Part shown: in pieces, positions 1 through 338 of the stretch
Layout: each line of letters starts with the position of its first letter
How positions within the stretch are numbered: the first letter of the stretch is position 1
Assembly: GCF_003334765.1 (NCBI RefSeq)
Contig: NZ_QOWT01000134.1
DNA: 338 bases
Strand: one strand, 5' to 3'
From: Escherichia coli
GTDB lineage: Bacteria > Pseudomonadota > Gammaproteobacteria > Enterobacterales > Enterobacteriaceae
Translations under genes and position numbers: made by a program
Notes under the pieces: model-generated
Databases searched by the model: none
The model's input: only the letters and a program-made list of their open reading frames with translations
What the model was told of the DNA's origin: nothing

Positions 1-179
1 AGACGGTCCATCCAGCCGAAGACACGGGGCTCCAGGGTCACCCACTGTGGAATGAGGCCAAAGTGCTGCGGCCAGAAACTGATACGTTGTTCATCAGGGA
101 CGAGGCTGGCAACCAGTTGTTGCAGGTCAGTCTCCGGTGCTGAGACCGAAGAGGTGGTGTTCTGAGACAATGTTTTCAT
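1..179 (-). CDS. Hypothetical protein, N-terminal fragment (59 codons; continues beyond the window start). Visible sequence: MKTLSQNTTSSVSAPETDLQQLVASLVPDEQRISFWPQHFGLIPQWVTLEPRVFGWMDR...
   Basis: ATG at 179-177 on the minus strand is preceded by AAGGA with an 8-nt spacer. The same frame carries stops just upstream (TGA at 251-249, 248-246 and 242-240) and no other ATG/GTG/TTG between them and 179, so an N-terminal extension is excluded. The frame is open to the window edge. Codon usage is enterobacterial-like: Arg is CGT three times, Leu mostly CTG/CTC, Gly GGC, about 64% GC at third positions. The aligned plus-strand frame would need rare CGG/AGG Arg codons. Confidence 0.7.
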   Translation of the reverse strand, partial: MKTLSQNTTSSVSAPETDLQQLVASLVPDEQRISFWPQHFGLIPQWVTLEPRVFGWMDR

Positions 180-187
180 ATGTGAAA

Positions 188-192
188 TCCTT
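188..192 (-). promoter_or_regulatory. Shine-Dalgarno / ribosome-binding site (AAGGA) for the CDS starting at 179
   Basis: Minus-strand AAGGA (plus-strand tcctt at 188-192) lies 8 nt upstream of the ATG, a canonical spacing. Confidence 0.6.
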
Positions 193-273
193 GTAGTGTG
201 AATAAATGCGAGGAAGTAAAGGTCGGGTGGCTGATAACATCACGTTCATCACTGACCGTGAGACCCGGTAATA

Positions 274-338
274 TCAGGGATGAATGATATTCGGCTGAAA
301 TTCCGGACAGCCGTACGCGTAACCGTTCCGGTCACAGA
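274..338 (-). CDS. Possible 3' end of an upstream minus-strand gene (hypothetical protein; last 20 codons ...CDRNGYAYGCPEFQPNIIHP, stop TGA at 276-274)
   Basis: A minus-strand frame is open from the window edge to the TGA at 276-274 and uses mostly common codons (CCG, GCG, GGC, TAC, AAC). A second minus frame is also open, ending at TGA 251-249 (...SVTGTVTRTAVRNFSRISFIPDITGSHGQ), but it contains the rarer ATA, CGA and GGA codons. With under 30 codons visible the choice is not secure, and neither frame may be coding. Confidence 0.3.
   Translation of the reverse strand, partial: CDRNGYAYGCPEFQPNIIHP

Follow-up and report, generated by a model that had tools for sequence, protein, structure and literature searches.

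The DNA analysed here (the window) is a stretch of 338 nt that corresponds to positions 12001-12338 of our reference locus, which is taken from E. coli 042 and is called L001 below. Read 5' to 3', its minus strand carries the 3' end of a small Cys-rich gene that has become a pseudogene in this lineage, a spacer, a Shine-Dalgarno motif and the 5' part of a gene that runs on past position 1 (Table 1). On the strength of its sequence we identify this last gene as ardB, a member of the ArdB/KlcA anti-restriction family. The start of ardB is unambiguous on direct reading of the sequence: exactly 8 nt (TTTCACAT) separate AAGGA from the ATG, the minus strand around the start being ...ACAAGGATTTCACAT ATG AAA ACA..., and from this ATG the frame is open to the edge of the window for 59 codons (translation, MKTLSQNTTSSVSAPETDLQQLVASLVPDEQRISFWPQHFGLIPQWVTLEPRVFGWMDR), while three TGA codons lie upstream of the ATG in the same frame. 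RefSeq places the start of ardB at the identical base in its annotation of E. coli 042 (L001 12179, or window 179). In addition, the sequence ACAAGGA is kept 8-9 nt 5' of the ATG in the Yersinia and Klebsiella orthologues, the Mixta version being ACGAGGA. A first-pass annotation made from the letters of the window had proposed a real minus-strand gene with just this ATG, an AAGGA 8 nt upstream and in-frame upstream stops, and on these points it was correct.

Table 1. Positions of features in the window (plain numbers) and in the reference and compared loci (L numbers; L001, E. coli 042; L006, Yersinia; L007, Salmonella).
Feature	Position	Strand	Basis
5' part of ardB, codons 1-59 and two bases of codon 60	1..179	-	Translation, annotation, Pfam, PDB, PHROG
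ATG of ardB	179-177	-	Read from sequence
Shine-Dalgarno AAGGA, 8 nt 5' of the ATG	188..192	-	Sequence; motif kept in orthologues
94-nt spacer, stop of the Cys-rich ORF remnant to the ardB ATG	180..273	-	Promoter and terminator scans, RNA fold, Rfam
TGA codons in the ardB frame	251-249, 248-246, 242-240	-	Read from sequence
3' end of the small Cys-rich gene (pseudogene here), last 20 codons from 336, TGA 276-274	274..338	-	Translation, intact homologue, alignment
Palindrome ACCG-GAA-CGGT	332-322	-	
Full ardB ORF	L001 11706-12179	-	Annotation of E. coli 042
38-nt deletion site in the small gene	L001 12464/12465	-	Alignment
Small Cys-rich gene, decayed copy	L001 12274-12481	-	
Terminator-like hairpins before DUF932 and DUF905, E. 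coli	L001 13377-13348 and 13686-13658	-	
Terminator-like hairpin before DUF932, Yersinia	L006 3125-3147		
Terminator-like hairpin before DUF932, Salmonella	L007 3126-3153		
Small ORF-ardB spacer, Yersinia	L006 4265-4392		
Small ORF-ardB spacer, Salmonella	L007 4262-4326		
Intact copies of the small gene	L004 2452-2697; L005 4935-5189; L006 4001-4264; L007 4001-4261; L009 4001-4255		

Identity of ardB and the island that carries it

The full ORF to which the window contributes encodes a protein of 157 aa (WP_000855083.1) that is annotated as an "antirestriction protein" in E. coli 042. Searches with this protein returned the Pfam family PF03230 (Antirestrict; E 1e-36, residues 62-157 against the full model, 1-92), PHROG 10132, "anti-restriction protein" (E 4.5e-63), and two structures, namely ArdB of E. 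coli CFT073 (PDB 2WJ9, E 7.5e-107) and KlcA (PDB 2KMG, E 2.3e-22, aligned over residues 17-157); an NCBIfam search with ArdB gave no family. Its size fits that of the family (about 135-160 aa), and it is an acidic protein of 17.8 kDa with a computed pI of 4.74. The closest characterised relative is clearly ArdB CFT073 (ORF14 of PAI II-CFT073, NP_752219), which has the same length, is likewise acidic (reported pI of 4.83) and is also encoded on a genomic island, in that case the pathogenicity island PAI II. The two proteins are identical at 150 of 157 residues (95.5%) and differ by seven substitutions (V12A, S13C, D18G, S25T, L26I, G90D and N92T), five of which fall in the N-terminal tail encoded by the window. 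The first-pass annotation had considered the gene to be of unknown function and had asked for a protein homology search, a confident hit in which would by its own account remove that status. Because the protein shares 95.5% identity with CFT073 ArdB, which has been crystallised and assayed, and matches the Pfam Antirestrict family, the function has to be counted as known, and the earlier label does not stand.

There is a considerable body of work on what proteins of this family do. ArdB of CFT073 and the K-12 proteins YafX and YfjX relieve type IA-ID restriction in vivo; their anti-modification activity is negligible and they did not inhibit purified EcoKI in vitro (PMC2836571). The action of ArdB is independent of the recognition site, and type III and BREX systems are unaffected (PMC10149784). 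In the case of the purified type I enzyme BlihIA, cleavage was blocked in vitro by ArdB of R64 (PMC12429846). By analogy with the CFT073 protein, from which it differs at only 7 residues, the 042 allele would be expected to have anti-restriction activity. Reasoning from these near-identical proteins, it would block DNA cleavage by type I enzymes (IA-ID) and thereby protect unmodified DNA entering the cell, would have barely any effect on methylation and would act in a site-independent manner rather than as a DNA mimic.

More distant relatives differ from the gene studied here mainly in their setting. KlcA of the IncP-1 plasmid pBP136 (2KMG) belongs to the same fold family as the present ArdB, and both KlcA and the ArdB proteins of pKM101/R64 share with the ArdB family a restriction-only, site-independent inhibition of type I enzymes. 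However, these proteins are distant in sequence and plasmid-borne (klcA is part of the kilC operon of IncP plasmids), whereas the present gene is chromosomal and lies on an island. YfjX (also called LfgA) of prophage CP4-57 and YafX of prophage CP4-6, both from K-12, are paralogues of ArdB within the same family, with anti-restriction activity shown in vivo (PMC2836571). Their genes have the downstream neighbours that ardB has here, that is, a RadC-like gene, DUF987, an antitoxin and a toxin. They differ in that the proteins have 152 rather than 157 aa, with a different N-terminus (MTTQTQ...), and in that upstream of yfjX and yafX a DUF905 gene or pseudogene takes the place of DUF932 and the small Cys-rich ORF.

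The window is matched at 100% in five complete E. coli genomes, that of 042 among them, and at 99.7% in O104:H4, 55989 and H10407. Part of it is far more widespread, being present in 4418 of 5426 complete E. coli genomes and in each instance overlying an annotated "antirestriction protein". In 042 the surrounding island adjoins cadC and contains an integrase remnant, an IS1 fragment, Ag43 and the CbtA/CbeA pair. Its genes are all on one strand, in the order GTPase, Ag43, membrane protein, IrmA, DUF905, DUF932, ArdB, RadC/JAB, DUF987, CbeA, CbtA, DUF5983, DUF957 and DUF4942, and in the 042 annotation the gaps between ardB and its same-strand neighbours are short. The carrier of ardB is a CP4-like integrative island of E. 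coli, of the type found in 042, 55989, O104:H4 and H10407, which in 042 has lost most of its mobility functions. The gene thus sits on a mobile or formerly mobile element, and the module is also found on a conjugative IncHI2 plasmid. The accessory-island context that the first-pass annotation had raised is well supported by these surroundings.

A decayed small Cys-rich gene upstream of ardB

The nearest annotated intact gene upstream of ardB is DUF932, which ends at L001 12481 (window coordinate 481), and RefSeq leaves a gap of 301 nt between the two. In other genomes this space is occupied. E. coli 190693 has an 81-aa "hypothetical protein" (WP_001164966.1) whose start codon shares its first base with the end of the DUF932 stop codon (TGATG) and which ends 93 nt before ardB, and on the conjugative IncHI2 plasmid of Klebsiella quasipneumoniae an 84-aa homologue is found in the same place, 16 nt before ardB. 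Alignment revealed that in the 042 lineage 38 nt have been deleted near the 5' end of this small gene, between two AGGCG direct repeats and about 126 nt past the end of the window. The frame of the original ATG now runs for 15 codons before it meets a stop, and the 68 codons that remain are open and lack an ATG, GTG or TTG start. Two near-invariant residues have been substituted as well (C36Y and W58R). The tail of this remnant, its last 20 codons (CDRNGYAYGCPEFQPNIIHP) followed by TGA, is the part that lies in the window. The small gene is therefore a pseudogene in this lineage through a 38-nt deletion and frameshift, and the "intergenic" gap of 301 nt in 042 is mostly (about two-thirds) a decayed copy of a conserved small gene. 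The deletion allele is rare: at most 66 of the 5426 complete E. coli genomes fully cover the deletion junction, and the undeleted form is present in 2217. We also observed that the 68 codons left by the deletion are in frame with DUF932 and directly follow its TGA stop.

These findings bear on what had been said of the region upstream of ardB. The first-pass annotation had placed the likely end of an upstream ORF roughly 70-95 nt before ardB and had treated it as the upstream gene. Of the stops in question, that at 276-274 belongs to the frameshifted gene and that at 251-249, some 70 nt from the ATG, ends a chance ORF of 35 aa in the frame of ardB. As the small gene is frameshifted, the nearest intact upstream gene, DUF932, is 301 nt from ardB and not 70-95 nt. 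We also considered a plus-strand ORF of 337 aa that runs antisense to DUF932 over the full length of that gene, from an ATG at window 280 to L001 13293, and rejected it; it looks like a shadow ORF, since its length is unconserved (276 aa in Salmonella, 137 aa in Yersinia, and 118 and 105 aa in Klebsiella).

The small gene belongs to a family that is not represented in the domain collections that we searched. We found 184 homologues, from Escherichia, Klebsiella, Enterobacter, Citrobacter, Salmonella, Yersinia and Mixta, with identities down to about 53%; most of the full-length ones have 79-87 aa. The family is thus conserved in Enterobacterales. Precomputed Pfam domains occur among these 184 in two longer fusion products only. 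A profile search extended the family to 321 clusters (50% identity), some of which have the domain at the N- or C-terminus of proteins of 150-294 aa. Pfam, NCBIfam and PHROGs hold no model for the small ORF, and Pfam and PHROGs none for its fused relatives. The family core reads SISDDDLCAWCxHLxYRPGExSLC...WP...DGY...CP (in a looser form, SISDDDLCxxCxxLxYxPGExSxC...WP...DGY...C), and the four cysteines that are invariant (C33, C36, C49 and C71) probably form a zinc site. AlphaFold2, run with an alignment of 34 sequences, gave an unusable model of the small ORF (mean pLDDT of 42). In the loci that we compared, the small gene always lies between DUF932, with which it shares the TGATG overlap, and ardB. 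The order DUF932, small ORF, Antirestrict gene, RadC recurs in Klebsiella, Salmonella arizonae, Mixta, Yersinia intermedia and E. coli, as do most of the downstream genes. It is conceivable, if rather doubtful, that the small Cys-rich protein has a role in the anti-restriction module that has so far been overlooked, as a partner or as a regulator.

Within the remnant, about 150 nt upstream of the ardB ATG, the codons D-R-N-G form the palindrome ACCG-GAA-CGGT. A motif ACCG-N5-CGGT located 162 bp upstream of K-12 lfgA is not needed for the binding of MqsA (PMC10846083), and the likeness of the two is probably coincidental.

Transcription of ardB

The first-pass annotation had reported no good -35/-10 pair upstream of ardB, and our scans agree with it. 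A consensus scan of L001 11600-12700 found 0 promoter-like and 0 terminator-like sites, with the qualification that consensus scans miss weak, activator-dependent, H-NS-silenced or alternative-sigma promoters. When the minus strand between the end of DUF932 and ardB (L001 12500-12160) was scanned with sigma-70 position weights, the best score was 4.9, as against a mean best score of 7.2 +/- 1.9 for shuffled controls (91% of shuffles scored at least 4.9) and scores of 8-14 for five known promoters.

Terminators were likewise lacking where they would separate ardB from DUF932: L001 12180-12480, the stretch that separates the end of DUF932 from the first codon of ardB, contains no terminator-like site. 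Over the whole minus-strand block that begins with DUF932 and closes with DUF957, just two such sites were seen, both weak and both downstream of ardB, inside the CbtA and DUF5983 genes. The strong terminator-like hairpins on the gene strand are located before DUF905, before DUF932, after DUF957 and after DUF4942. Those with stems of 10-13 bp and a T-run that lie about 30-50 nt before the DUF932 start are found in E. coli, Yersinia and Salmonella alike (Table 1; the second of the E. coli hairpins listed precedes DUF905), and no recognisable promoter was present in the short gap between this hairpin and the DUF932 start. A leader or attenuator RNA was also considered and rejected. The RNA fold of window 150-290, which includes the spacer, had a z of +0.24 (no significant structure), that of the 301-nt region had a z of -1.2, and Rfam gave no match in L001 11000-14000 at a permissive E-value threshold.

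We lean towards the possibility that ardB is transcribed by read-through from DUF932. Under this scenario, ardB mRNA would come from transcription that continues through DUF932 and translation would start from the gene's own strong Shine-Dalgarno site. Co-transcription with the upstream genes is plausible, and our reasoning for this is that (i) the neighbours are on the same strand, (ii) no terminator intervenes, (iii) no promoter is visible and (iv) in Klebsiella and Mixta no more than 16 nt separate the small ORF from ardB. The proposal that ardB is an internal gene of an operon, which was part of the first-pass annotation, is reasonable in the light of these points; against it stands the description of the K-12 paralogue yfjX/lfgA as the first gene of its operon, and it is supported in part only. 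We searched the literature for mapped transcription starts or signs of co-transcription in this island module and found nothing usable.

The principal alternative, to which we give a smaller but still substantial share of our belief, is that ardB heads a unit of its own (ardB, radC, DUF987, cbeA, cbtA and so on) that is expressed from a weak or non-consensus promoter, possibly activator-dependent or silenced. The 301 nt between DUF932 and ardB would hold such a promoter, either within the decayed remnant of the small ORF or within the 94-nt spacer. There is precedent for this in K-12, where yfjX/lfgA is described as the opening gene of the MqsA-repressed lfgABCDE operon, preceded by a promoter region to which a regulator binds; the MqsA footprint lies about 245 bp upstream of the lfgA start, and repression is 3-4 fold (PMC10846083). 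However, on alignment the upstream regions of K-12 yfjX and yafX, with their DUF905 gene or pseudogene, are not homologous to the region upstream of ardB here. The MqsA/lfgA promoter data therefore do not transfer to ardB, and we rejected the K-12 regions as a model for it.

The spacer itself offers further points in favor of a separate promoter. In Klebsiella and Mixta it measures 16 nt, from which it has expanded to 93-128 nt in E. coli and Yersinia (94 nt here, 93 nt in E. coli 190693 and 128 nt in Yersinia). In Yersinia a terminator-like hairpin separates the small ORF from ardB, so that a downstream promoter would be needed there; this hints that ardB is insulated from upstream transcription in some lineages. 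Against a promoter in E. coli stand the sigma-70 score, which is below that of typical shuffles and of the known promoters, the empty consensus scan and the lack of a terminator between DUF932 and ardB. For Salmonella, the spacer is 65 nt by the called ardB start and probably about 92 nt, as judged from the sequence, if the start is the second ATG, which lies 27 nt downstream with AAGGA 9 nt before it. A GC-rich hairpin is seen in the Salmonella spacer just before the called start.

A quite different idea, and a very improbable one in our view, is that the promoter-less region is a single-stranded-DNA promoter of the Frpo/ssi type that becomes active on the transferred strand directly after its entry by conjugation, in the manner of plasmid leading regions. 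Leading-region anti-restriction genes are often driven by Frpo elements of roughly similar size (PMC11541004), the same gene module is present on a conjugative IncHI2 plasmid and, when both strands of the 301 nt were folded as DNA, the fold was somewhat more stable than shuffles (z of -2.8 and -2.3). However, the fold consists of branched short hairpins rather than one long imperfect hairpin presenting -35 and -10 boxes, and these elements were absent in the scans. In addition, about two-thirds of the 301 nt is a decayed coding gene of which about 2200 other E. coli genomes have an intact copy, and the plasmid, on which the small gene is undamaged, has a spacer of no more than 16 nt. We therefore rejected this candidate. 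Finally, the notion that the frame open over 1-179 arose by chance or is a fragment of a dead gene, for which we found no supporting point, can be set aside given that the full 157-aa ORF is intact and annotated, matches Pfam at E 1e-36, is 95.5% identical to a crystallised, active protein and has its coding part in 4418 of 5426 complete E. coli genomes.

Implications for the ardB module

Taken as a whole, the account that we favor, in which the window carries the start of an island-borne ardB, likely reached by read-through, and the tail of a pseudogene upstream of it, is one that we hold with strong confidence. Its central element is an ordinary finding: the gene is an already known and well-studied anti-restriction determinant, and beyond a correct annotation there is little to be gained from it, as most E. 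coli genomes have ardB and both a crystal structure and activity assays exist for a near-identical protein. Some value attaches to the recognition that the 301-nt gap of the RefSeq annotation of 042 is mostly a decayed copy of a conserved and uncatalogued small Cys-rich gene; this family beside ardB is the only item here that is new, and it is mildly so. With regard to expression, transcription of ardB on islands of this kind may come either from DUF932 read-through or from an own, regulated promoter of the sort claimed for K-12 lfgA. If the small Cys-rich protein did indeed act as a partner of the module or regulate it, the 042 lineage, which has lost it and kept ardB intact, would represent a natural knockout, and the small gene would be dispensable in the resident island.
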